Assembly: GCA_039024335.1 (NCBI GenBank)
Contig: JBCCQM010000015.1
Coordinates: 3,781 to 67,780 of the forward strand
Reading direction: 5' to 3'
DNA: 64,000 bases
DNA from: Myxococcota bacterium
GTDB taxonomy: Bacteria; Myxococcota_A; Polyangia; Nannocystales; Nannocystaceae
Shown here: positions 51,234 to 62,005 of the stretch, one piece after another
Position numbering within the stretch: position 1 is the stretch's first letter
Layout of the letters: the number at the start of each line of letters is the position of its first letter
The notes under the pieces: generated by a model
The model's input: the letters and a program-made list of their open reading frames with translations, nothing else
What the model was told of the DNA's origin: nothing
Databases searched by the model: none
Made by a program: the position numbers and the translations under genes

Positions 51234-53333
51234 ATGGTTTATGGAGGTCGCGTTGGGATCGCTGCGTCTTGGCTCGCTGTCGCGGTGGCGATGACGGCCT
51301 GTGGAGACCTCGGAGAGGACTTCGCCAGCGGCGCCGGTGCTGAAGATGGTGATACCGACGGTCCCGGCAATGCGGACACCGACAACCCGACACCCGTCGA
51401 CGGCGACGACGACACTGCAACCACGGACGACCCGGAAAGCACCGGCGCCGAGAGCGGCGGGAGTGATGATGGAGGGACCGACGGCGAAGACGACGGGTCT
51501 GGAGCCGTCTGCGACCTCGAGTGCGGGGAAAGTGGCTGGTGCGACTACGACGACAATGGCGCCCCGACCTGTGCATGCGACGAGGGGTTTGCATCCACCG
51601 GCCTCGGCTGCGTCCCGTGTAACCCGGTCGAAGACGGCGTCCTGCCAGGCCTAGTGCCGAGCATCGAAGCCACGTTCACGATTTCGGTCAACGAGGATAC
51701 GCCTGACGCGAGTCCCTACGACTTCGGTCGCATCGAGCTGCGGAATCGGGCAACGGGCGACCGAGTCGAGCTGGGCCGCACGGCTGATGAGACACTGACC
51801 GCCCGCATCGTGCCCGGAACCTACGACGTGCTTTACAGCGTCGTCGAAGCCGGCGCGACGGTCCCGAAAAACCGCGGTGCCGTGCTGAGCACCGTCGAGC
51901 TTACGGAGGACGGTACCGAGCTCAAGATCGACGTCCCCACCGCATCCATCGCCGGTAGGATCACCGTAGGCGGCTCCACATCGGCAAGCAACGTCTACAA
52001 CTTCGGGCGGCTCTGGCTGGTCAACAAGTATACCGGTGACCGCGTCCTGCTCGGAACGACGAGGGACCCGCAGTACAGCGCCCGCGTCATTCCTGGTGAC
52101 TACGAGGTCCGCTACGAGGTGCGCGAGAACGACGGAGACGTTCCGTCCAACTTCGACGGCTTCGTCTCCAATCTCTCGGTCGGCCAAGACGACGACGCGT
52201 TGGATATCGACGTTCCACTCGTTCGCTACAGCGGCGACGTCACCATCGACGAGCAGAGCGTCGGCAGCCCGTACGAGGGCGGACGACTCGAGCTTCGCGA
52301 CGTCGACACGGGCGACGTCTTCTCCATCGGTGACACACGCGACGAGGAATTCGACATCGCCGTACTGCCAGGGAGCTACGAAATCCTGTACACGCACCTC
52401 GAGGGCGGGGACGCAGCGCCCGTGAACAAGGGCGCCATCCTCGGAACGATCGACCTGCCCGAACCCGACAACGGTACCGGCGCCGTCACGAGCGACATCA
52501 AGATCAAAACGGTCGTCGTCTCCGGTGGGTTCCAGCTCGGGGACTCGACGCCTCCGGGCAATACCGCCGACGACGGCGTCATCAGCCTCGAGAGCCCCAT
52601 GTGGGGCACGGCAGTGCTGGGGAACACCCACGACGGCGCCTACGTCTCGCGCGTGATTCAGGGCGAATACGACGCGTACTACGCTCAGGAGACGGCCAGC
52701 GTGGTGATGCCGAAGAACACGCACGCCAAGCTCTCCGAAAAGCCATTCACGCTCATGAGCGAGGCTATGACGATCGAGATCCCCGTCGTCGAAGTCACCG
52801 GCAACCTCACCATCGGAGGGGTCGAGGCACCGGACTCCCCGTACGACGACGGTCGGCTGTACCTACGCAACCGAGACACCGGCGACTCCGTGCTCTTGGG
52901 CAACACCCGACTGGGCACGTACGCGGCCCGCATCGTGCCCGGCACGTATGACGTCGTGTACGAGAACGAGTTCAGCGACACCCAGCTGCCGATCAACCGC
53001 GGCGCGGTCGTCCGAACCGACGTCACAGTGGACGTCGAGAACGACCAGCTCGACATCGATGTTCCCGTCTCAACCGTGGTCGGCGACATCGAGATCGGCA
53101 ACAGCACGCCCGAACTCGCCGAGGGTCTTGGGCAGTTGTTCCTGGTCGACCGCGCGAGCGGCGACGAAATCTTCATCGGACATACCGGCGCAGCATCGTT
53201 CGCACGCCCGCTCACCGACGGCACGTACCTGATGGAGTACCGGGGCGTCGCCGCCGAGGGAGCCACCTTGGGCGACTCGCTTCCGGCGAACGAGCGCGCA
53301 GTGTTCGCCTGTTTCAATCTCAGCGCAGAGTAG
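51234..53333 (+). CDS. Lipoprotein with EGF-like Cys knot and six ~93-aa repeats (paralog A)
   Basis: Lipobox VAMTAC and an acidic D/T/G linker. Cys knot CDLECGESGWCDYDDNGAPTCACDEGFASTGLGCVPC. Six modules share Y.FGR(L/I).L.N..TGD...LG.T....Y.AR(I/V).PG.Y.V.Y.....G..(V/L)P.N....IDVP. Confidence 0.8.
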   Translation: MVYGGRVGIAASWLAVAVAMTACGDLGEDFASGAGAEDGDTDGPGNADTDNPTPVDGDDDTATTDDPESTGAESGGSDDGGTDGEDDGSGAVCDLECGESGWCDYDDNGAPTCACDEGFASTGLGCVPCNPVEDGVLPGLVPSIEATFTISVNEDTPDASPYDFGRIELRNRATGDRVELGRTADETLTARIVPGTYDVLYSVVEAGATVPKNRGAVLSTVELTEDGTELKIDVPTASIAGRITVGGSTSASNVYNFGRLWLVNKYTGDRVLLGTTRDPQYSARVIPGDYEVRYEVRENDGDVPSNFDGFVSNLSVGQDDDALDIDVPLVRYSGDVTIDEQSVGSPYEGGRLELRDVDTGDVFSIGDTRDEEFDIAVLPGSYEILYTHLEGGDAAPVNKGAILGTIDLPEPDNGTGAVTSDIKIKTVVVSGGFQLGDSTPPGNTADDGVISLESPMWGTAVLGNTHDGAYVSRVIQGEYDAYYAQETASVVMPKNTHAKLSEKPFTLMSEAMTIEIPVVEVTGNLTIGGVEAPDSPYDDGRLYLRNRDTGDSVLLGNTRLGTYAARIVPGTYDVVYENEFSDTQLPINRGAVVRTDVTVDVENDQLDIDVPVSTVVGDIEIGNSTPELAEGLGQLFLVDRASGDEIFIGHTGAASFARPLTDGTYLMEYRGVAAEGATLGDSLPANERAVFACFNLSAE

Positions 53334-53346
53334 AGAGAATCAAGCG

Positions 53347-55416
53347 ATGGCGCGTCCGAAGTACATCCAGACCCGAACGTCCGTGACGCTGATCGGCGCG
53401 ATGTTATGTGCGGGCGGATGTTCGCTCGAAGACGTGGCCAGCGCAGACGCCAACGCCGATACCGACACCGGTAACTCGACGCTCTCGTCAGGAACCGGAG
53501 ACGACGGCGGTGACGTCACAGGCTTGACCGCAGATACGGCGGGCGACGATTGGACTGAAGGGACCGGTCCTGGTTGGGATACGGACACCGATCCGACGGA
53601 TGCCGATCAAGAAGGCACCTGCAACCTCGACTGCGGGCAGGGTGGGTACTGCGACGAAAGCAACGACGTCCCCACGTGTGTATGCGACCCGGGCTTTGCC
53701 TCGACCGGCCTCGACTGCGTGCCCTGCGAGACGATCGCGGACGGCACCCTGCCGGGCATCGTCCCCGCCGTTCGGGCGGCCTTCGAGTTCAGCATCAACG
53801 GAGACGTCCCGCCCCAAAGCCCCTACGACTTCGGTCGCCTCGAACTGCGCAACCAGGCCACCGGTGACGCCGTCCCCCTGGGCCGCACCAACGATGACGG
53901 CGCCTCACTCCTCGTCGTTCCCGGGAAGTACGACGTCCTGTACCGCCTCGTCGAGGGTGGAGAGGCGCTTCCCACCAACGAGGGGGTCGTGCTCGAGACG
54001 TTGGCGATCTACGAAGCGGCCGGGACCTATGCGATCGACATCCCGTACGCTCACTACACGGGTCGAATCAGCGTCAACGGCGAGGCGAACGTCAGCAACG
54101 TCTACAACTTCGGCCGTCTGTGGTTGGTCAACCCCTCGACGGGTGACCGCGTCTCTCTGGGCGATACGCGCGCCACGCAGTTCAGCGTCAACGTCGTTCC
54201 TGGCCGTTATGAAATCCGCTACGAGGTCCGCGAAAACGACGGGCTCGTCCCTGCAAACCGCAGCGGCCTCATCCAGGAGATCGACATCGTCTCTGACACG
54301 GAGCAGGACATCGACGTCCCGATGGCGACCTACACCGGGGAGATCACCATCGACGGCACCGCGGTCGAGTCCCCCTACGAATGGGGCACGCTGGAACTGC
54401 GCGACATTGCAACGGGCGACGTCTTTCCCTTCGCGCAGACGAACGATGCCGCCTTCTCCGTCAACCTCATCCCGGGCGACTACGAAGTCCGCTACACGTC
54501 CCAAGAAGGCGGCGACGCGGCCCCCATCAACCGTGGCGCCGCGGTGGGCCTGGTCTCGATCAACGAAGACACGGAGGGTGCGATCGACCTGCACACGGCG
54601 CAGGTCAGCGGCGCCTTTACGCTCGCGGGTGAAACCCCGCCGGGCAGCACAGCCGACGACGGGGTCGTGATGCTCCAGGGGGAGACCGGTGGCACAGCGC
54701 TGTTGGGCAACACCCACGATGCCGCCTACTCAGCTCGAGTTCTCGTTGGCGCCTACGAGGTGGTCTACGCCCAGGAAACCGCAAGCCTGAACATGCCCGG
54801 CAACACCCACGCGGTGCTGACCAAGGCTGAGGTCGTCTCGGACGACTCGCTCTCGATCGACATTCCGGTCGTGGAGGTTACGGGCACGCTGACGATCGAC
54901 GGAGACGAGGCACCGAACTCTCCGTACGACGACGGGCGCCTCTACCTGCGCAACGCAGAGACGCGAGACTCGGTCTTGCTCGGCAACACGCGCTTGGGAA
55001 CCTACGCAGCCCGCATCGTCCCCGGAACGTACGACGTCGTGTACGAGAACGAGTTCAGCGACACGCTGCTGCCGCTGAACCGAGGCGCGATCGTGCGTTC
55101 GGGCGTCCAGATCAACCCCGACCAGAGCACGCTCGACATCAACATCCCGGTGTCGGTGCTCTCTGGAGAAGTCGAGATCGACGGCTCGATCCCGTCACTC
55201 GACGAAGGCCTCGGCCAGCTCTTCTTGGTGGACCAGGCCAGCGGTGACGAGATTTTCATCGGCCACACGGGAGCCACCGCGTTCACGCGACCGCTCACCG
55301 ACGGCGTCTACATGGTGCAGTACCGCGGGGTCGCGGCAGAGGGCGCGTCGCTGGGGACGTCCTTGCCTGCCAACAGCAAAGCCTCGTTCGCCTGCATCGA
55401 AGTCGTCAGCGAGTGA
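53347..55416 (+). CDS. Lipoprotein with EGF-like Cys knot and six ~93-aa repeats (paralog B)
   Basis: Lipobox LCAGGC. Cys knot CNLDCGQGGYCDESNDVPTCVCDPGFASTGLDCVPC. Collinear with paralog A, from which it is separated by 13 nt. Confidence 0.8.
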   Translation: MARPKYIQTRTSVTLIGAMLCAGGCSLEDVASADANADTDTGNSTLSSGTGDDGGDVTGLTADTAGDDWTEGTGPGWDTDTDPTDADQEGTCNLDCGQGGYCDESNDVPTCVCDPGFASTGLDCVPCETIADGTLPGIVPAVRAAFEFSINGDVPPQSPYDFGRLELRNQATGDAVPLGRTNDDGASLLVVPGKYDVLYRLVEGGEALPTNEGVVLETLAIYEAAGTYAIDIPYAHYTGRISVNGEANVSNVYNFGRLWLVNPSTGDRVSLGDTRATQFSVNVVPGRYEIRYEVRENDGLVPANRSGLIQEIDIVSDTEQDIDVPMATYTGEITIDGTAVESPYEWGTLELRDIATGDVFPFAQTNDAAFSVNLIPGDYEVRYTSQEGGDAAPINRGAAVGLVSINEDTEGAIDLHTAQVSGAFTLAGETPPGSTADDGVVMLQGETGGTALLGNTHDAAYSARVLVGAYEVVYAQETASLNMPGNTHAVLTKAEVVSDDSLSIDIPVVEVTGTLTIDGDEAPNSPYDDGRLYLRNAETRDSVLLGNTRLGTYAARIVPGTYDVVYENEFSDTLLPLNRGAIVRSGVQINPDQSTLDINIPVSVLSGEVEIDGSIPSLDEGLGQLFLVDQASGDEIFIGHTGATAFTRPLTDGVYMVQYRGVAAEGASLGTSLPANSKASFACIEVVSE

Positions 55417-55470: not shown

Positions 55471-56784
55471 TCAGCTGCGCCCGAGGACGCCCGTCAGCCA
55501 GAGGCTCAGCCCCTCGTTGAACGTGATCGTCAGCAGCGCGGCCAGCATGAGTATCAAGAACGGTAGCGCGTACCGGTAGAGCTTCACGACCGGCTTGTCG
55601 AACGCCAGCGACGAGATGAACAGGTTCAGCCCGACCGGCGGGGTGATGTAGCCGATCTCCAGGTTGGCCAGGAAGATGATGCCCAGGTGCAGCGGATGCA
55701 CGCCGTACTCGGCGGCGATCGGGGTGATGAGCGGCACCACCACGACGATGGCCGAGAAGATGTCCATCAAGCAGCCGACGATCAGCAAGAAGACCGTCAG
55801 CAGCAGCAGGAAGGTGAAGCGGCTCTCCACCGCGCCCGAAATGGCCGCGAGGATCTTCATCGGCACCTCCTCCTGCACGAGGAAGTTCGTCAGGCCCAGC
55901 GCGACGCCGAGAATCAGCAGGATGGCGCCCACCATCACGCTCGCCTCACGAATGACTTTGTCCAGCGAGGGGACCTCCGGGTCGGACGAGAAGAGCTTGA
56001 GGTCCTTGTAGATGAACACCTCGACGATGACGAGGTAGATGGCGCAGATCGCCGACGCTTCGGCGATGGTCACGAGGCCGTCGGTCAGGCCCGGCACGCC
56101 GTAGATGGCGACCAGCACCACCACCGGCACGGCGAGCTCCCACTTCGCCTGCCATGTGGCGGTCATCGCTTCACCGAGGTCGAACGGGGTGCGGTTGACC
56201 TTGCGCTGGTTGCCGACGAACAGGCTGTAGCCGCCGAGCACCAGCAAGAAGATGGCGCCGGGCACGATGCCCGCGACGAACAGCGCGTCGATGCTGGTCT
56301 TCGCGACAATGCCGTAGAGGATGATCGGCAGCGACGGCGGGAACAGCAGGCCGATCGAGCCCGAAGACGTGATGAGCCCGAGGCTGAAGTTCTCCGGGTA
56401 CCGCTCCTTGACCAAGATCGGATGCAGCAGGCCCCCGAGCGCGATGATCGTGACGCCCGACGCACCGGTGAACGTGGTGAAGAAGGCGCAGGAGGCCACG
56501 ACCACGAAGCCGAGTCCACCCGGCAGCCACCCCAGCAGCGCGCGCGAGACCCGAACGAGACGGTCGGCGGCCTTGCTCTCGGCCATCACGAACCCCGCAA
56601 GGGTGAACAGCGGGATCGTGATGAGGTGCGGGTTGGTGGCGAGCTTGTAGTGCTCCTCGCTGAGCACGACCAGGTCGGTGCCCGCGGAGGAGAAGTTCAC
56701 GATGCCCATGCCGCCCAGCACGCTGAACAGCGGGGCCCCGACGAGGGCCAGCAGGATGAGTACGAGTGCGAGCAGCGCGGTCAT
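55471..56784 (-). CDS. dctM: TRAP transporter large permease subunit (DctM family)
   Basis: 437 aa with about 12 TM segments and a typical DctM N-terminus (LLALVGAPLFSVLGGMGIVNF). ATGA overlap with the upstream small-subunit gene. Confidence 0.9.
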   Translation of the reverse strand: MTALLALVLILLALVGAPLFSVLGGMGIVNFSSAGTDLVVLSEEHYKLATNPHLITIPLFTLAGFVMAESKAADRLVRVSRALLGWLPGGLGFVVVASCAFFTTFTGASGVTIIALGGLLHPILVKERYPENFSLGLITSSGSIGLLFPPSLPIILYGIVAKTSIDALFVAGIVPGAIFLLVLGGYSLFVGNQRKVNRTPFDLGEAMTATWQAKWELAVPVVVLVAIYGVPGLTDGLVTIAEASAICAIYLVIVEVFIYKDLKLFSSDPEVPSLDKVIREASVMVGAILLILGVALGLTNFLVQEEVPMKILAAISGAVESRFTFLLLLTVFLLIVGCLMDIFSAIVVVVPLITPIAAEYGVHPLHLGIIFLANLEIGYITPPVGLNLFISSLAFDKPVVKLYRYALPFLILMLAALLTITFNEGLSLWLTGVLGRS

Positions 56785-58274
56785 CGGTCGTCCCCTTCGT
56801 CTTCGTCTTCGCCCTTGTCGTCGTCGGCGTCGGCCGACGCCTCAGCCTCCGCGCCTGCCGAATCCTCTTCGTCGGCAGCATCATCGGCGTCCGCGTCCGC
56901 GTCCGCGTCATCGGCGTCAGCGTCATCGGCATCCGCGTCATCGGCATCTGCCGCATCGCCCGTCTCGGCCGACGCCCCTCCGGGCGCGGCTTCGGCCGGC
57001 ACGTCGTTGAGGGCCGACTCGAGCAGGCGCACGCTGAAGTGCAGCGCCAGAAGCCCGAAGCCCACCGGGAACATCAGCTGGAACATCCAGTCGTCCGCGA
57101 ACGGCGCGACCTCCTTCGGATACTCGCGGCTGATGTCGACCAACTTTTGGCCAGCATTGGCCAGCGTAAGGCAGACGGCAATGGCCAATCCGTTCGTAAC
57201 CACGCCAGCCCATCGATTGACCGCCGGTGGCAAAAGCTTGCTAGCTGCGTCGATGTTGATGTGTTTCCGACGAGCCGTGGCCAGCGCTCCACCCAAGAAA
57301 GACATCACGATCACGAGCTGACGCAAAAGGACATCGATCCAGTCGAGCTTGATGTCGTCGATGAGGGTCACCATCCGCGCGGCAAAGGACCCCTCCGGCG
57401 GCGGTCCGCCCTTGGGCCTCTCATCGACCTCATGGGCCGGGGCGTCGATCTCCTGCAGGTTGTCGAAGACGTCGTCGTCGCCGAAGTCGTCGGCCTCGTC
57501 TTCTTCGTCCGCGGGGTCGGCATCGCCGGAGTCCGCTGCGGCCGGCTTGGGCTTTGCGCCGCCGAACGCACCGCCGAAGCCCTCGTCGTCCTCTTGACCG
57601 CCGGAGTCGTCCCCGCCGCCGAATGCCCCACCAAAGTCTCCGCCGTCTTTCTTGGCGACCGGCTCGTCCTCTTCGGACTCGTCCTCATCGCGGCCGAACG
57701 CGCCGCCGAAGTCTTCTTCGTCCTCGACCGGCTTGGGTTCCGGTGCAGGCTTGGCATCCTCGTCGTCTCGGCCGCCTCCGAACGCCCCGCCGAAGTCCTC
57801 ATCCGCGTCGTCCGCAGCGGGCTTCGGCGCCGGCTTGGAAGGCTCTGCATCCTCGTCGTCTCGGCCGCCGCCGAACGCACCGCCGAAGTCTTCATCCGCG
57901 TCGTCCGCCGCGGGCTTCGGCGCGTCGCCGTCTTCAGGATCGTCGTCGCCGCCGCCGGAACCGCCGCCACCGAACGCGCCACCGAACTCACTCTTCTCGG
58001 TTGGCGTATCCCCGGCCGGCGCGGGCGCCTCGGGCTTGGCGTCCGCCGGCTCGGGTGCAGCCGGGGTGCCAGGCACCTCATGCGCGGCTGGCTCCACCGG
58101 CGGGCCGCTGTGGGCCCAGTGGACCTGCAGCGGCACCAAGATGTTGCGGTAGACCACGTTGTAGCCAGCGAGGGCCAGCATCAGCAAGACGATGCCGACC
58201 AGCGCGGCCCCCTCGAGCCGCACAAGCTGTGCCTCCAGCGCGCGGAGCCGATTCATGCTCCGCTTGTACCGCAT
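56781..58274 (-). CDS. dctQ: TRAP transporter small permease subunit (DctQ family) with a large acidic FG-motif insertion and an acidic C-terminal tail
   Basis: DctQ-like TM1 (GAALVGIVLLMLALAGYNVVYRNIL) and TM2-4 (LDWIDVLLRQLVIVMSFLGGALATARRKHINIDAASKLLPP...). About 250 aa of low-complexity sequence separates TM1 from TM2-4. Start is ATG 58274 or 58256; the ORF is open to 58313. Confidence 0.8.
   Translation of the reverse strand: MRYKRSMNRLRALEAQLVRLEGAALVGIVLLMLALAGYNVVYRNILVPLQVHWAHSGPPVEPAAHEVPGTPAAPEPADAKPEAPAPAGDTPTEKSEFGGAFGGGGSGGGDDDPEDGDAPKPAADDADEDFGGAFGGGRDDEDAEPSKPAPKPAADDADEDFGGAFGGGRDDEDAKPAPEPKPVEDEEDFGGAFGRDEDESEEDEPVAKKDGGDFGGAFGGGDDSGGQEDDEGFGGAFGGAKPKPAAADSGDADPADEEDEADDFGDDDVFDNLQEIDAPAHEVDERPKGGPPPEGSFAARMVTLIDDIKLDWIDVLLRQLVIVMSFLGGALATARRKHINIDAASKLLPPAVNRWAGVVTNGLAIAVCLTLANAGQKLVDISREYPKEVAPFADDWMFQLMFPVGFGLLALHFSVRLLESALNDVPAEAAPGGASAETGDAADADDADADDADADDADADADADDAADEEDSAGAEAEASADADDDKGEDEDEGDDR
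57558..57986 (-). repeat. Coding tandem repeats encoding six (D/E)FGGAFG motifs, including two near-identical 93-bp units
   Basis: The units at about 57738-57830 and 57831-57923 align with a 93-nt period (AACGC[C/A]CCGCCGAAGTC[C/T]TCATCCGCGTCGTCCGC...). They encode APKPAADDADEDFGGAFGGGRDDEDA twice. Confidence 0.9.
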
Positions 58275-58354
58275 TTCGCCCCCGCGCTGGATCTCCAGGC
58301 GGGGGCGCATCATCCCCGGCGGGAGGCCGGAGGGTCAGAGTCGAGGCGTCTCGA

Positions 58355-59362
58355 CTACAGGTAGCTGTCCATCTCGGCAACCAGGTCGGCGTCGAACGTG
58401 GACCCGACCAGCTTCTTGCGCACGCCCTTGGCGATGGCCTTCCACTCGTCCATGTTCGTCGGCTCGACGACCTGCACGCCCTTCTCGGTGAGCGTGGCGA
58501 CGGCTTTCTTGTTGTCCTTTCGAATCCGCTTGACCAGCTTGGCCCCGTATTCGTTCGACACGTCCATCAGCAGCTGCTTGTGATCATCGCTGAGCTTGCC
58601 AAAGCTCTTCTGCGAAATAACCGAGGCACCCAGTCCCATCGCCATGCGTAGGTTCGTGACGTACTTGATCTTCGAGTACCACTGCAGCGAGATGAGGGCG
58701 TAGGGCGAGCTCGCGCACGCATCGATGACGCCGGTTTGAAGGCTTGGCAGCACGTCAGGGACGCTCAGCTCCACACCGTTGACGCCCGCGACTTCGGCGG
58801 TGACTTTGGTGACGGGGTCGGCATCCCAAACCCAAAACTTCGTGGACTTGAGGTCGGAGGGACTCGCGACGGGCGTGTTCGAGAACGGGTACAGAAACCC
58901 TACGTCGCCCCAGTTGCTGAGATGAAACCCGCCGTCGGCGAAGAGCTTCTCGAAGCTCGGCTTCATCTTCTCCCGGACTCGGTCCACCTGCTTGTAGTTG
59001 GAGAACAACATCGGGAACTGCATCATCAGCACCTGTTTGTTGATCTCCCCAAGGCCGACCGAAGTGACGGCGGCGCCGTCGAGCTGCCCGGTCCGGCACT
59101 TCCGAATCATGGCTGGCTCATCCCCCATGACGCCACCGACGTAGACCTGCATCTTGATTGCACCGTCGGACCGCGCCTTGACCTCTCGTGCAATCATCTT
59201 GAAGGCCTTCGCCCAGCTCGAGCCGTCAGGGGCGAGCGAGGCGATCTTCAAGGTGTGTTTCGCTTCCCCTTTGGCGATGAGCGGGGCGCCAACCGCGGCG
59301 ACACCGGCAGCGGCGGTGGAGGTGCGAAGGAAGGTGCGTCGGGTCGGCTTCTTCAGCGTCAT
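58355..59362 (-). CDS. dctP: TRAP transporter substrate-binding protein (DctP family), Tat signal
   Basis: MTLKKPTRRTFLRTSTAAAG twin-arginine leader. DctP-like core (LKIASLAPDGSSWAKAF, GAIKMQVYVGGVMGDE). Confidence 0.88.
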   Translation of the reverse strand: MTLKKPTRRTFLRTSTAAAGVAAVGAPLIAKGEAKHTLKIASLAPDGSSWAKAFKMIAREVKARSDGAIKMQVYVGGVMGDEPAMIRKCRTGQLDGAAVTSVGLGEINKQVLMMQFPMLFSNYKQVDRVREKMKPSFEKLFADGGFHLSNWGDVGFLYPFSNTPVASPSDLKSTKFWVWDADPVTKVTAEVAGVNGVELSVPDVLPSLQTGVIDACASSPYALISLQWYSKIKYVTNLRMAMGLGASVISQKSFGKLSDDHKQLLMDVSNEYGAKLVKRIRKDNKKAVATLTEKGVQVVEPTNMDEWKAIAKGVRKKLVGSTFDADLVAEMDSYL

Positions 59363-59507: not shown

Positions 59508-60425
59508 TCACTCCAGAATCAGGTCTTCCACGTGGGTCGACCAGAACCGTGCGCGAGACCGCGCAAGTTCGTTCGTGAGCCGCATTTCCTGAGGCATTGC
59601 GGTCACGTCGGCCGTCAGCACGCGCTTCATGAGCGTATCCCACAGGGCGCGATCCTGGGCGGCCGGGCAGTAGTAGCGGGCGAACAGGAACGCCACCATG
59701 AGGCTCTCCCCACCGCTGCGCTCGAGCGCCTCCTCGAAGAACTTCTTGGACACCTCGGGCTGGCCGCCGAGTGCCTTGGGGATGGACGCGTTGAGCACCC
59801 CGAAGAACAGCGTGGGCGCGCCGCCGTTGTAGCCGGGGTCGAGCTCGTACGCGCGACGCATCAGCTCCTTCGCGGGGCCCAGGCCGGCCATCATCGCGGG
59901 GTCGTCCTTCGAGAGGTTGATCGCCGACGCCCATCCGTACGTCGCCCAGAACAAGGCGGGCTGCTGCTCGGGCTTGATGTCCTCGAGCAGCTCGCCCATG
60001 CGCTCGAGGTCGGCGGCTTCGGCCGCTGCCCGCAGCTCGGGCTCGTCGAGCAAGCGCCAGCCGTACTCGCTGCCGCGCAGGTAGAAGATCTTCGCGCGAC
60101 GCGTCAGCTCGTCGATCTCCTCCTCGGTCCCGTCGATGCTCGCGCGGTCGAGGTCGTCTTCGACGAAGCCGAACGCGTAGGAGCTGTACCCACGCGCGAG
60201 CAGGAGGAGCAGGTGCTCGTTGTCCGGCGTGTTGACCAGGAACGTCTCGAGCGTCTTGAGGCTCGCGGGGAACGCCTCCCGGGCAAACTGGGGATCGGAC
60301 TCGCGGTCCAGCGCGCTGCTTCCGGCGTAGACCATGTCGGCCGAAGCGTTGGCGGTCAGCTTGCTGAGATTGCACGCGGGCAGCAGGGTCAACAGGCAGG
60401 CGAGGACACTCGTAGAACGCAGCAT
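59508..60425 (-). CDS. TatT-like TPR lipoprotein (T-component of TPR-protein-associated TRAP transporters)
   Basis: Lipobox LLPAC. An all-helical 305-aa protein with the TatT-family sequence style (FPASLKTLETFLVNTPDNEHLLLLLARGYSSYAFGFVED, ALFWATYGWASAINLSKDDP, GGAPTLFFGV). Immediately upstream of dctPQM on the same strand. Confidence 0.7.
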   Translation of the reverse strand: MLRSTSVLACLLTLLPACNLSKLTANASADMVYAGSSALDRESDPQFAREAFPASLKTLETFLVNTPDNEHLLLLLARGYSSYAFGFVEDDLDRASIDGTEEEIDELTRRAKIFYLRGSEYGWRLLDEPELRAAAEAADLERMGELLEDIKPEQQPALFWATYGWASAINLSKDDPAMMAGLGPAKELMRRAYELDPGYNGGAPTLFFGVLNASIPKALGGQPEVSKKFFEEALERSGGESLMVAFLFARYYCPAAQDRALWDTLMKRVLTADVTAMPQEMRLTNELARSRARFWSTHVEDLILE

Positions 60426-60550: not shown

Positions 60551-60976
60551 ATGAAGCAGCTCGGACGCGTCGCTTTTCTCGCCCTCTCCTGCGCAGCCCT
60601 CCTGCCTGGCTGCGACAAGGTCAAGCAGTGCAACAAGTTGATCAACGCCATCAACGCGCACACGCCCAAGCTGACCGCCGCGACCGAGAAGTTCGGCGAG
60701 ATCGAGAAGAACCCGAAGGTCGTCGAGGAGTACGAGGCAGTCGTCGAAGCGGCGATCACCGACGTTCAGGGCCTCGACCTCAGTGACGAGCAGGTCGCAG
60801 GCTTTGCGAAGCGCTACGAGACGCTGCTCGAGGACGCCAAGTCGATCGGGCCCCAGATGAAGGAGGCCAGCTCCGACATCACCAAGATGCAGGCCGTGGT
60901 CGGCAAGGCCGATGAGATCCGCAAGACCGAGGACACGCTGGTCGGCGAGGTCAACACGTACTGCGGCGGCCAGTAG
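60551..60976 (+). CDS. Hypothetical helical lipoprotein
   Basis: Lipobox ALLPGC. 141 aa with good codon bias. Confidence 0.7.
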   Translation: MKQLGRVAFLALSCAALLPGCDKVKQCNKLINAINAHTPKLTAATEKFGEIEKNPKVVEEYEAVVEAAITDVQGLDLSDEQVAGFAKRYETLLEDAKSIGPQMKEASSDITKMQAVVGKADEIRKTEDTLVGEVNTYCGGQ

Positions 60977-61021: not shown

Positions 61022-62005
61022 ATGCTGGACTTCCAGAACGACCCTTGGGGTGCGGCCATGGTCGCGACCGCCGGCGTGAGCGCCGTTGGTCTGCTGCTCG
61101 TCGTCGCTCGACAGGTCTCGGGCCGCCGCGCCGCTGCGGGCGGATGGACGCTTGGCCTCGGCCTCACCGCGTTCTTGGGGAGCGCCGCCCTCGGCACGCT
61201 CGAGCAGGTCGATGCCGCGCCGGCGGCTGCCGCAGAGGCCCCGGTGGAAGCTCGAGCGGCCGCACCGAAGACCGCCGCGGACGCGTCAGCTGACCCGGTC
61301 GCGCCGAAGGAGGCTCCCGAGAACCCGGCCAAGCCCGACCCTGCCCCCGTCGGCGAGGATCCAACCCCGGCGGTCGACGAACCTCCGCCGACCCCCCCGG
61401 AGGCGCCGGCGGTCGAGGCCGGGAGCGCCCTGGAGCCCGTGGCCGCGCTCCCGTCGGATCCGGCGGCCCGAAAGACCGCGATTCGCAAGGTCCTGCGCGC
61501 CGCCAAGAACGTCTACGAGGACGAGACGGCCTGCAAGCAAGCCAAGGCCGTGGGCCAAGCGTGGGCACAGATCGCGGCGTTGCCCGACGACGCGCCGAAG
61601 GCTCGCGCCGACGTCGTCGTGCGCCGCCTCGAGCAGTGCCGCCGAAGCACGCGCTGGGCGGTCGCCTACTCGGTCCACCGTGACCGGGTCGACGCCCGCG
61701 ACGCGTTCGAGGAAACGTTCGCAGACCGGCTCGAGACGGACCACGGCCTCCGCGCCTTCATCAAGCTCTCCGGCAAGAACCACGAGAAAATGCGCGTGGG
61801 CAGCGGCCGCTTCGACGACGACGTGATCGCCAAGATCATGACCGAGGCGACGAAGGCCGAGCTTGCTGAGCTCGGGTTCGAACGCGTGGTGTTCGCGTCG
61901 GGCAAAAAGGCATGGCCGCACGACCTCGACGTTCGCGCTGAAGATGGCTACGTCGGCGACGTGCTCGCGCCATACGGCCTGCGCAACAAGCTGAGCCTGG
62001 ACTAA
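61022..62005 (+). CDS. Hypothetical membrane-anchored protein with Pro/Ala-rich linker
   Basis: Two N-terminal hydrophobic segments, a PA-rich linker, and a ~190-aa C-terminal domain. No recognisable motif. Confidence 0.65.
   Translation: MLDFQNDPWGAAMVATAGVSAVGLLLVVARQVSGRRAAAGGWTLGLGLTAFLGSAALGTLEQVDAAPAAAAEAPVEARAAAPKTAADASADPVAPKEAPENPAKPDPAPVGEDPTPAVDEPPPTPPEAPAVEAGSALEPVAALPSDPAARKTAIRKVLRAAKNVYEDETACKQAKAVGQAWAQIAALPDDAPKARADVVVRRLEQCRRSTRWAVAYSVHRDRVDARDAFEETFADRLETDHGLRAFIKLSGKNHEKMRVGSGRFDDDVIAKIMTEATKAELAELGFERVVFASGKKAWPHDLDVRAEDGYVGDVLAPYGLRNKLSLD

Follow-up and report, generated by a model that had tools for sequence, protein, structure and literature searches.

Introduction

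TRAP transporters contain a Q subunit that is seen as a minimal scaffold of four helices. The least understood class of these systems are the TatT-associated TRAP transporters (TPATs), in which a hydrophobic ligand has to travel from the lipoprotein TatT via P to the QM permease. In the solved SiaQ structures, the loop between TM1 and TM2 is on the periplasmic side, and the P subunit is predicted to contact both periplasmic Q loops, with charge complementarity (PMC9971032). Long-chain fatty acids are ligands of the TatT proteins in this class (PMC11713862), and TatT physically binds P and handles the hydrophobic ligand, as described for Tp0956/Tp0957 and for TatT of Enhygromyxa salina (PMC5812351, PMC11713862). 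In Treponema pallidum, the permease is described as one homologue of dctQM (tatQM), and the P subunit is said to be a lipoprotein (PMC5812351).

Here we describe a gene for which assignment as the Q (scaffold) subunit of a TPAT, in a Nannocystaceae-like myxobacterium, is well supported. It is equally well supported that the periplasmic TM1-TM2 turn, normally of about 6 residues, is replaced in this protein by a disordered, strongly polyanionic loop of about 260 residues bearing an array of short motifs.

Results

The Q subunit of a TPAT-type operon is split between TM1 and TM2

In the window, the 64,000-nucleotide stretch of DNA analysed here, four genes lie on one strand in the order TatT-DctP-DctQ-DctM, with tatT immediately upstream of dctP and the dctQ stop overlapping the dctM start (ATGA), as in translationally coupled genes (Table 1). 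By its gene content, this operon encodes a TPAT-type TRAP transporter. DctP carries a twin-arginine signal (RRTFL) and its domain has a net charge of +9, while TatT has a lipobox predicted from its sequence (LLPAC|N) and a domain net charge of -16. The dctQ-like gene has two alternative starts downstream of the first ATG, Met14 at 58274 (the start used in the initial annotation) and Met20 at 58256; most homologues begin at the equivalent of Met20.

Table 1. Coordinates of the operon genes and of the features of the dctQ-like gene in the window.
Feature	Coordinates	Strand	Evidence or remarks
dctM, large permease, 437 aa	55471..56784	(-)	PF06808 1.9e-74; TIGR00786 316 bits vs cut-off 268
dctQ-like gene, 510 aa from first ATG	56781..58313	(-)	ORF list; Pfam PF04290 6.2e-19; Foldseek
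Cytoplasmic C-terminal tail, Asp/Ala-rich (aa 438-510), predicted	56781..57002	(-)	6/15/21-nt micro-repeats; hypervariable; AF2 pLDDT <50
DctQ core, TM2-TM4 (aa 322-437)	57003..57350	(-)	Pfam 323-433; AF2 helices 325-347, 363-397, 414-435
Conserved pre-TM2 block (aa 277-321), DFGDDDVFDNLQEIDA ... GGPPPEGSFAA	57351..57485	(-)	Alignments; AF2
Disordered polyanionic insert (aa 63-320), predicted periplasmic	57354..58127	(-)	Composition; AF2; homologues with inserts
FGGAFG motif 6 (aa 246-251)	57561..57578	(-)	
FGGAFG motif 5 (aa 227-232)	57618..57635	(-)	
FGGAFG motif 4 (aa 202-207)	57693..57710	(-)	
93-nt tandem pair, two 31-aa units APKPAADDADEDFGGAFGGGRDDEDA..	57747..57923	(-)	TRF: 1.9 copies, 92% matches; unit comparison
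FGGAFG motif 3 (aa 174-179)	57777..57794	(-)	
FGGAFG motif 2 (aa 143-148)	57870..57887	(-)	
FGGAFG motif 1 (aa 110-115)	57969..57986	(-)	
Post-TM1 block LVPLQxHWAHSGPPV (aa 59-75)	58089..58139	(-)	Alignments; conserved, specific to long-loop clade
Basic N-terminus, predicted cytoplasmic, and TM1 (aa 1-62)	58128..58313	(-)	Hydropathy; AF2 helix 7-67, pLDDT ~90
dctP, solute-binding subunit, 335 aa	58355..59362	(-)	PF03480 8.6e-40; NF037995 299 bits; TAT signal matches
tatT, TPR lipoprotein (predicted), 305 aa	59508..60425	(-)	PF16811 7.7e-70; PDB 3u64 Tp0956 E 2.5e-17; lipobox

The DctQ profile PF04290 matched the product above its curated threshold (68.6 bits vs. a cut-off of 28.3), but only over aa 323-433, corresponding to profile positions 19-129 of 132; the TM1 portion of the profile is thus set apart from the remainder. 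Hydropathy analysis gave four segments, TM1 at aa ~28-60 and the next hydrophobic stretches at 325-347, 369-388 and 410-431. The AlphaFold2 model has a confident four-helix, SiaQ-like core, its first helix spanning aa 7-67 and its second aa 325-347, followed by helices at 363-397 and 414-435. The best Foldseek match of this model was SiaQ (7qha_A, prob 1.0, TMt 0.56). In a sequence comparison, aa 322 pairs with HiSiaQM residue 36, at marginal similarity (E 0.27). Between the first two helices, aa 68-309 were modelled as coil with no secondary structure, and pLDDT was below 50 across nearly all of aa 100-275, the exceptions being a handful of isolated residues at 50.

The N-terminus and the TM2-TM3 loop are basic, and the flanks of the insert obey the positive-inside rule. 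This charge distribution leads to a predicted DctQ topology in which the insert faces the periplasm and both termini are cytoplasmic, in agreement with the position of the TM1-TM2 loop in SiaQ. The initial annotation had proposed a DctQ protein in which a large acidic insertion with six FGGAFG motifs separates TM1 from TM2 and thereby splits the profile match; the insertion would be disordered and located in the periplasm, with DctP or TatT as partners. The Pfam, hydropathy and composition data bear out the split, the model and the flanking charges support the predicted disorder and location, and the genes for both partners were found by Pfam directly upstream of dctQ.

Conserved motifs lie among drifting acidic spacers

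The insert contains 47 Asp, 45 Gly, 39 Ala, 31 Pro and 30 Glu residues; its net charge is -60 and its spacers are about 30% Asp+Glu. Codon-position GC within it (0.83/0.52/0.80) is consistent with translation in this frame. In addition to six exact FGGAFG motifs, there is a degenerate copy, FGDDDVF, at aa 277, and 12 of the 15 Phe residues of the insert fall inside motifs. The six copies compare with a mean of 0.00045 and a maximum of 1 in 20,000 composition-preserving shuffles. Both ends of the insert are marked by conserved blocks, with almost invariant alignment columns at P61, Q63, S69, G70 and P71 after TM1, and at G302, G303, P304, P305, G308, S309 and F310 before TM2. The latter block ends in an amphipathic helix (aa 310-321; AF2 pLDDT 87-92).

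Comparison with an orthologue (L006/P0001) separated motifs from spacers. Motif copy number and positions are identical in the two genes, and 35/36 motif residues are the same, though 12/35 codons have changed synonymously; the spacers are 77% identical, with indels. At the DNA level, identity is ~90% over the operon and 98-100% over the N-terminus and TM1, but only 60-85% in the insert. The C-terminal tail has 45% amino acid identity with 25 gapped positions, and together with the insert makes up the fastest-evolving parts of the operon. Such conservation of motifs amid drifting, indel-prone spacers is the hallmark of short linear motifs embedded in disordered sequence, suggesting that the motifs are selected elements, while the spacers would be free to drift and vary in length. 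TRF confirmed the 93-nt period of near-identical 31-aa units pointed out previously. The recent expansion of the array that had been deduced from it was not supported, since the orthologue has just as many copies; it looks rather as if two existing units had been homogenised, or a duplication had been offset by a loss.

Long Q loops are shared by close homologues

A long TM1-TM2 insert was present in 82/82 close homologues. In an exhaustive search with the core only, the best ~44 clusters (50% identity) were all long, with ordinary Q subunits of 160-190 aa ranking only beneath them. The 128 distinct insert sequences range from 104 to 317 aa and are all net acidic (-8 to -77; median 24% Asp+Glu). 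Most hold 2-11 copies of a motif with the consensus [DE][DE]xxG-F-G-G-x-[FLW]-G-[DE][DE], and 110/128 have at least two strict copies. The variants diverge considerably (FGGAFG, FAGDWGEGG, HLGDLADD, FGGFTNDED). Given this divergence and the few inserts with fewer than two strict motifs, a loose physicochemical requirement fits equally well as a specific docking site.

The named sources of long-insert sequences are Nannocystaceae, other Myxococcota and Bradymonadales, mostly marine or saline lineages (Nannocystaceae, Paraliomyxa, Bradymonadales). The TatT-DctP-Q-M arrangement was found at 30 of 38 long-loop loci; five others consist of Q-M only, P and T genes being absent within 2.8-8 kb. A TatT lipobox was predicted in 26/26 long-loop loci, and DctP in these loci has no lipid anchor and is thus expected to be soluble. 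The median charge of the DctP domain is +4.5 in long-loop loci vs. +1 in short-Q TPAT loci, and that of TatT -11.5 vs. -3, in both cases uncorrected for phylogeny; such modest differences could reflect lineage-wide proteome composition. TPAT operons with an ordinary short Q (150-190 aa) occur in Ignavibacteria, Bacteroidota, Gammaproteobacteria and some Myxococcales. The insert is therefore dispensable for TatT association, making the loop an accessory.

The module had been put forward as undescribed. Our literature search found no published description of a Q subunit with such a loop, and its homologues are annotated at source by the generic name 'TRAP transporter small permease'. The insertion is, however, not peculiar to this gene, given how commonly its orthologues carry it. 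A loop of this type goes unmentioned in the passages of the TPAT literature covered (PMC5812351, PMC11713862).

Discussion

Possible roles of the loop

A tether or docking surface for DctP or TatT and a cation-binding polyanion had been suggested as possible roles with the initial annotation. The reading we prefer, and hold tentatively, is that the loop is a multivalent periplasmic tether at the P-docking site of Q that captures the mildly basic, soluble DctP. Emerging like a flexible 'fishing line' from one of the two loops of Q for which a contact with P is predicted, it would act through long-range electrostatics and weak multivalent aromatic contacts, on DctP that is either free or leaving the acidic TatT lipoprotein. 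DctP would in this way stay concentrated at the QM permease, permitting efficient hand-over of a ligand of low solubility, which is probably a long-chain fatty acid. There is a precedent in MalF, a membrane subunit whose large periplasmic loop P2 binds the solute-binding protein (PMC6906923). Two observations speak against a tether: the five long-loop loci with Q-M only, and the TPAT operons that function with a short Q.

The acidity seen in 128/128 inserts could also operate with no partner at all, as a non-specific polyanionic brush exerting bulk physical chemistry at the permease mouth. Such a brush might be an entropic or electrostatic bristle repelling anionic envelope components, or a cation reservoir or buffer, either for the Na+ to which TRAP transport is coupled (PMC9971032) or for Ca2+/Mg2+, with which fatty acids would otherwise form soap precipitates in seawater. 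The freedom with which spacers vary in sequence and length and the largely marine or saline relatives fit this proposal, which we consider unlikely but worth keeping in play. It leaves unexplained why aromatic-Gly motifs are under purifying selection while acidic spacers drift, and no recognisable Ca2+-binding pattern emerged: the RTX pattern GGxGxDxUx has 0 matches in the window insert and at least two in 0/128 inserts, and DxDxDG, absent from the window insert, occurs in 9/128. It is improbable, too, that the insert is a tolerated low-complexity expansion, in which high-GC replication slippage duplicated functionless units in a permissive loop. The 93-nt tandem pair, the micro-repeats, the rapid evolution of insert and C-tail, the similarly acidic repeat tail at the cytoplasmic C-terminus and the frequency of FGGxFG strings in unrelated Gly/Phe-rich low-complexity proteins (pattern scan) are all as expected from slippage. 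Yet every member of the clade has kept the insert while cores diverged to ~30-45% identity, the motif is retained across differing spacer families, and the concentration of Phe in motifs and the synonymous turnover beneath conserved motif residues go against it. Moreover, Phe has no GC-rich codon (TTY only), and its codons run counter to the 68% GC of the window.

A partner other than DctP is conceivable, if distinctly unlikely: the motifs may dock TatT, for example on its TPR surfaces, or another outer-membrane component, physically joining a lipid acceptor near the outer membrane with the permease of the inner membrane. TatT is a TPR protein, a predicted lipoprotein throughout the long-loop loci, and accompanies DctP-Q-M in 30/38 of them; a 260-residue coil could be long enough to cross the periplasm. 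On the other hand, an acidic TatT should be repelled by a loop of charge -60, TatT works with a short Q in other phyla, and a ruler would hardly vary threefold in length, as the loop does. In some Bradymonadales, moreover, the lipid-modified Cys of TatT is followed at +2 by Asp, which in E. coli is an inner-membrane retention signal. For T. pallidum, one proposed model anchors TatT in the outer membrane (PMC5812351), in line with an envelope-spanning contact. We give little credence to an autoinhibitory gate or pseudo-ligand, whereby carboxylate-flanked hydrophobic motifs would mimic a fatty acid at the P-docking face of QM or in the DctP cleft, regulating access or aiding ligand stripping. 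Although P is predicted to contact the Q loop that houses the insert (PMC9971032) and the motifs do place aromatics beside carboxylates, the idea is purely speculative and a plug needs no multivalency (2-11 copies). More far-fetched still is an FG-nucleoporin-like or LARKS-like hydrophobic meshwork in the periplasm around TPAT permeases, to which numerous Q loops would contribute their aromatic-Gly arrays, perhaps with Ca2+/Mg2+ from seawater clustering them and screening their charge, and into which DctP/TatT loaded with fatty acid, or the lipid itself, would selectively partition; if true, it would be a bacterial 'selective phase' conducting hydrophobic cargo from outer-membrane-proximal TatT to the inner-membrane elevator. 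An artefact (mis-assembly, frameshift or two genes) is effectively refuted by the single TM1-insert-TM2-4 reading frame in more than 100 independently assembled sequences and by coherent codon-position GC along the whole gene.

Comparison with known systems

The window has the same operon content as the TPATs of T. pallidum (TatT/TatP/TatQM) and E. salina (TatT) (PDB 3U64, 4DI3, 8G52), namely TatT, a DctP-family P and Q/M. It differs from the T. pallidum system in that Q and M are separate, DctP is predicted to be soluble and Tat-exported, and Q has a disordered loop of ~260 aa. With SiaQ/SiaQM (PDB 7QHA, 7QE5, 8THI), the gene shares the four-helix Q scaffold, the insert sitting at the TM1-TM2 periplasmic turn; in SiaQ this turn is short, the substrate class differs and sequence similarity is marginal.

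FG-nucleoporin repeats and LARKS-type segments carry Phe-Gly 'stickers' in low-complexity sequence. The window insert resembles them in having multiple such stickers (six motifs) between disordered spacers (pLDDT <50), whereas its family is predicted to be periplasmic, has only 2-11 copies and has highly acidic spacers (median 24% Asp+Glu), which should oppose FG-type cohesion. The spacers do not match those of an FG-nucleoporin-like cohesive domain, which would be polar or of low charge, in contrast to the ~30% Asp+Glu and net charge of -60 seen here. RTX-type Ca2+-binding repeats were rejected, tandem GGxGxDxUx units being missing from the window insert. The Gly/Phe-rich region of DnaJ/CbpA shows a local resemblance (acidic residues, Phe, Gly-Gly, Phe-Gly) that is compositional, with no homology or shared context. 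A metagenome pattern scan for paired FGGxFG returned many sequences like ..FEDVFGGMFGG.. / ..DIFSSFFGGGFGG.., which we take to be G/F regions of J-domain proteins; such regions are cytoplasmic chaperone linkers.

The maltose ABC importer has the same type of placement: residues 91-276 of MalF form P2, a large insertion that lies in the periplasm and separates two TM helices. It binds the solute-binding protein with a Kd of 7-22 uM, holding it at the transporter through the whole cycle (PMC6906923), and would be the closest functional analogy for the tether that we favour. MalF-P2 is a folded Ig-like domain of an ABC transporter, whereas the window loop is predicted to be disordered, is polyanionic and repeat-based, and belongs to a secondary transporter; a folded P2-like domain was rejected, as AlphaFold2 modelled aa 68-309 without secondary structure and assigned pLDDT <50 to nearly all of 100-275. 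What the long-loop Q subunits add is a disordered stretch of 100-300 residues with motifs, conserved across a whole clade of predatory or marine Myxococcota and emerging exactly where Q has one of its predicted P contacts. As a mere polyanionic brush, it would be a lineage curiosity. Should DctP or TatT prove to be recruited by it, the loop would rank among the rare bacterial cases in which a periplasmic disordered region with short linear motifs organises a transport hand-off, and would be a disordered counterpart to the folded MalF-P2 loop.

DctQ carries a long acidic insert between TM1 and TM2

The dctQ gene is the third of four in a minus-strand operon, tatT-dctP-dctQ-dctM (see the table); alternative starts are Met14, chosen in the initial annotation, and Met20, the usual start among homologues. 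The DctQ family profile (PF04290) covers only residues 323-433 (profile positions 19-129 of 132; 68.6 bits vs. a cut-off of 28.3). Hydropathy places TM1 at residues ~28-60 and the next hydrophobic segments at 325-347, 369-388 and 410-431. The profile match excludes TM1, and an insert of 258 residues precedes TM2, as the initial annotation had proposed in describing a split DctQ. The insert contains 47 Asp, 45 Gly, 39 Ala, 31 Pro and 30 Glu, for a net charge of -60. The six exact FGGAFG motifs and the degenerate FGDDDVF copy reported earlier are indeed present, 12 of the 15 Phe residues of the insert falling within motifs (AADDADEDFGGAFGGGRDDEDA is an example of a motif peptide). Only 0.00045 FGGAFG copies were found on average in 20,000 composition-preserving shuffles of the insert (maximum 1).

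Coordinates of the operon, its flanking genes and related features (window positions unless a homologous locus is named)
Feature	Position	Strand	Remarks
tatT	59508..60425	-	PF16811 (7.7e-70); lipobox LLPAC|N
dctP	58355..59362	-	PF03480; twin-arginine signal
dctQ	56781..58313	-	single ORF, 510 aa from first ATG
dctM	55471..56784	-	ATGA overlap with dctQ
Start of dctQ	~58110..58290	-	first ~60 codons
93-nt period in dctQ	57747..57923		matches 92% (TRF)
DctQ C-terminal tail	56781..57002	-	aa 438-510
Repeat-rich protein	51234..53333	+	~690 aa; convergent, downstream of dctM
Paralogous repeat-rich protein	53347..55416	+	~690 aa; convergent, downstream of dctM; starts with lipoprotein-like signal (..LCAGGC)
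141-aa protein	60551..60976	+	divergent, upstream of tatT; lipoprotein-like signal (..LLPGC)
327-aa protein	61022..62005	+	divergent, upstream of tatT
Amidohydro_2 gene (PF04909), locus L002	7938..9140		directly 3' of dctM; order Q-M-amidohydrolase, upstream tatT/dctP missing
Amidohydro_2 gene, locus L195	10698..12068		directly 3' of dctM
Amidohydro_2 gene, locus L196	10518..11810		directly 3' of dctM

An AlphaFold2 model of DctQ, built with an 81-sequence alignment, has a long TM1 helix (aa 7-67, pLDDT ~90), coil from 68 to 309 with pLDDT below 50 across 100-275, an amphipathic helix at 310-321, TM2-TM4 at pLDDT 85-95 and a disordered C-terminal tail. The insert is thus predicted to be disordered, in agreement with the earlier expectation. 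In a Foldseek search of the PDB, the first match was SiaQ of Photobacterium profundum (7qha_A, probability 1.0, TMt 0.56), with further TRAP QM structures ranking next; by sequence, residue 322 aligned weakly with HiSiaQM residue 36 (E 0.27). Arg and Lys abound in the N-terminus and the TM2-TM3 loop, and the insert is extremely acidic. This charge distribution agrees with the N-in/C-in topology known for Q subunits and probably places the insert in the periplasm. Work on SiaQM predicts that both periplasmic Q loops make contact with P, their charges being complementary (PMC9971032); the insert would accordingly lie close to the P-docking face.

The Asp/Ala-rich, cytoplasmic C-terminal tail is a second low-complexity region (25 Asp and 24 Ala in 73 aa, with micro-repeats of 6, 15 and 21 nt). 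It is found in some relatives (P0010, P0013, P0020) and missing from many others.

The motif-bearing insert is a family trait

A search with the whole protein returned 82 homologues of 291-548 aa, all with PF04290 and with TM1 and TM2 at least ~110 residues apart. As this search was possibly biased by the insert, we also searched 1.84 billion cluster representatives with the core only (aa 296-440), obtaining 878 matches at E<=1e-3 and 35 at E<=1e-30. The match began nearly always at residue 130-327 in the best ~44 representatives (E<=1e-21), which are hence long proteins; the exceptions are fragments without TM1, and ordinary DctQ proteins of 160-190 aa ranked only below this group. The 128 distinct inserts pooled from all sources have a median length of 192 aa (104-317) and a median net charge of -35 (-77 to -8), and 110 of them contain at least two strict motifs. 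The motif consensus is [DE][DE]x[GE]G-F-G-G-[GDA]-[FLW]-G-[DE][DE], with sub-lineage variants (FGGFGGGLG, EGFAGDWGEGG, FGGFTNDEDED, FGGDFA), and a more distant long-loop group, called HLGDL here, has [HYF][LMA]GDL[AD]DD. In the main group, conserved flanks follow TM1 (YRNVLVPLQxHWAHSGPPV) and precede TM2 (DDxFANLxxIDA...GGPPPxGSFAA). A long motif-bearing insert is a family trait and no singularity of the window gene.

Arrays of three or more motifs were confined to Q ORFs (27/27, a count that contains one chance match in TM2, FLGAM) among 5,687 ORFs in 1.12 Mb of fetched loci plus the window. The repeat region alone gave no HMMER match at E<=1e-3 and missed even the orthologue, which we attribute to the treatment of low-complexity sequence by HMMER, so that this search is uninformative about the module in other proteins. 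A metagenome scan for pairs of FGGxFG units separated by 40-70 nt, too permissive a pattern, hit at least 120 loci, none Q-like among the matches listed; we take most of these to be DnaJ/CbpA G/F regions or junk Gly/Phe low-complexity ORFs.

Motifs are conserved while spacers drift

We compared the window with L006, a locus from an uncultured Nannocystaceae MAG whose operon DNA is ~90% identical and whose Q (P0001) is the orthologue. The motif residues are identical at 35/36 positions, 12 of those 35 differing in codon; amino acid identity is 77%, with indels, in the spacers, 89% in the TM2-4 core and 45%, with 25 gapped positions, in the C-terminal tail. At the DNA level, the insert is only 60-85% identical and the tail 21-43%. 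At this level of comparison, the codon differences show purifying selection on the FGGAFG motifs, and conserved 'stickers' among drifting 'spacers' are a hallmark pattern of short linear motifs within disordered sequence. The number and positions of the motifs are equal in the two loci. The near-identical 93-nt pair, earlier read as a recent expansion of the array, therefore seems to reflect homogenisation of units already present more readily than a net gain of copies, on the copy number of this one orthologue.

The first ~60 dctQ codons are 98-100% identical to L006 in DNA vs. ~90% over the rest of the operon, with a synonymous difference in 1 of 61 identical codons vs. about one third elsewhere. 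A constraint on RNA or on translation coupling where dctP meets dctQ could account for this, as could a recombination tract.

The operon is a TatT-associated TRAP transporter

The window operon is a TPAT, a class defined in Treponema pallidum (reviewed in PMC5812351); long-chain fatty acids were later shown to be ligands of TatT from both T. pallidum and Enhygromyxa salina (PMC11713862). The window TatT matches Tp0956 (3u64) over its full length (E 2.5e-17) and E. salina 8g52 partially (E 1e-11); being closer to the former, it suggests that Nannocystaceae may hold several TatT paralogue lineages.

A genome scan gave 69 loci, in which ORFs were called and searched with profiles of the window TatT, DctP, DctM and Q core. 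Long-loop Q genes came from Nannocystaceae/Nannocystales, Paraliomyxa miuraensis, other Myxococcota MAGs and Bradymonadales (including Microvenator). Of 38 distinct long-loop loci (three of the HLGDL type), 30 have the order TatT-DctP-Q-M, five have Q-M only (L002, L004, L025, L028, L035) and three are truncated at contig ends. The nearest short relatives (L036-L074) are from Ignavibacteria, Bacteroidota, KSB1, Calditrichota, Gammaproteobacteria, Nitrospirota and some Myxococcales, including a fused QM in Anaeromyxobacter oryzae; 32/39 are likewise TatT-DctP-Q-M, with a Q of 140-200 aa and a ~6-residue TM1-TM2 turn. TatT thus lies upstream of short-Q or fused-QM genes too, which rules out the loop as a hallmark of TatT association. 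The nearest relatives found are TPAT Q subunits as a whole; the loop is a Myxococcota/Bradymonadales elaboration that working with TatT does not require. Neighbor-joining trees over 82 core columns favour neither a single origin of the insert nor several: the FGG group was recovered in 32/100 bootstraps, the HLGDL group in 6/100 and the two united in 0/100. HLGDL-type loci have an Amidohydro_2 gene directly 3' of dctM.

The four genes flanking the window operon had no Pfam match above threshold. Homologues of each (phmmer) adjoin the operon in roughly 15-17 other Nannocystaceae-type long-loop loci (e.g. L005-L024, L033), and none were found in Bradymonadales-type loci.

Clues to a possible partner of the loop

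No DctP lipobox was found in any long-Q or short-Q locus, so DctP is soluble, and the loop as a replacement for a DctP lipid anchor is ruled out. DctP has a Tat signal (RRTFL/RRRFI) in Nannocystaceae-type loci (the window and L005-L024). The signal is of the Sec type in nearly all short-Q TPAT loci and in most of the Bradymonadales type; a few of the latter also match the RR pattern. For TatT, lipoboxes were present in 26/26 long-loop and at least 26/31 short-Q loci.

The median net charge of the DctP domain is +4.5 in long-loop vs. +1 in short-Q loci (Mann-Whitney p 0.018; window +9), and that of the TatT domain -11.5 vs. -3 (p 6e-5; window -16), both uncorrected for phylogeny. These medians hint that a -60 loop would attract DctP more readily than TatT, and suggest that such a loop might vie with TatT, itself acidic, for the basic DctP. 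Columns specific to long-Q vs. short-Q loci number 30 in DctP and 17 in TatT, and are confounded by phylogeny. DctP-domain position 81 (window) is Leu in 100% of long-loop and Arg in 88% of short-Q loci (L001-L074). TatT is ~15-19 residues longer in long-loop than in short-Q loci (about 296 vs. 277 aa, counted from where the profile begins), the additional stretch lying around TatT-domain positions 83-86 of the window.

A possible tether for DctP

We tentatively propose that the loop is a multivalent tether: it would capture soluble DctP by multivalent contacts and keep it concentrated at QM, which may help to pass on a ligand of low solubility. A non-specific polyanionic or cation-buffering brush would also suit so acidic a loop, but we consider it unlikely; RTX and DxDxDG calcium motifs, looked for in the insert, are absent, which speaks against its calcium-buffering form. 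Docking of TatT or an outer-membrane component is a poorer candidate, the charges favouring DctP over TatT as the target. It is rather improbable that the loop is a tolerated low-complexity expansion, set beside the constraint on its motifs, and that it acts as an autoinhibitory pseudo-ligand is highly improbable. The chance of an artefact is negligible; the reading frame of the insert is supported as translated by codon-position GC.

We found no description of a Q subunit with such a loop in the literature searched, where coverage of key TPAT papers is incomplete, and databases name the homologues only 'TRAP transporter small permease'. The initial claim that no such subunit had been described thus holds for this literature, and the feature is not peculiar to the window gene, 82 of 82 close homologues being long. 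A TPAT/TRAP Q subunit with an added, putatively periplasmic disordered region of short linear motifs would be new, within that coverage.

The loop is a real, conserved and testable accessory of a known transporter class, of putative function, and bears on how TPAT systems hand over their ligand. A tether in DctQ would play, in disordered form, the part of the MalF-P2 loop, to which MalE binds throughout the cycle (Kd 7-22 uM; PMC6906923).
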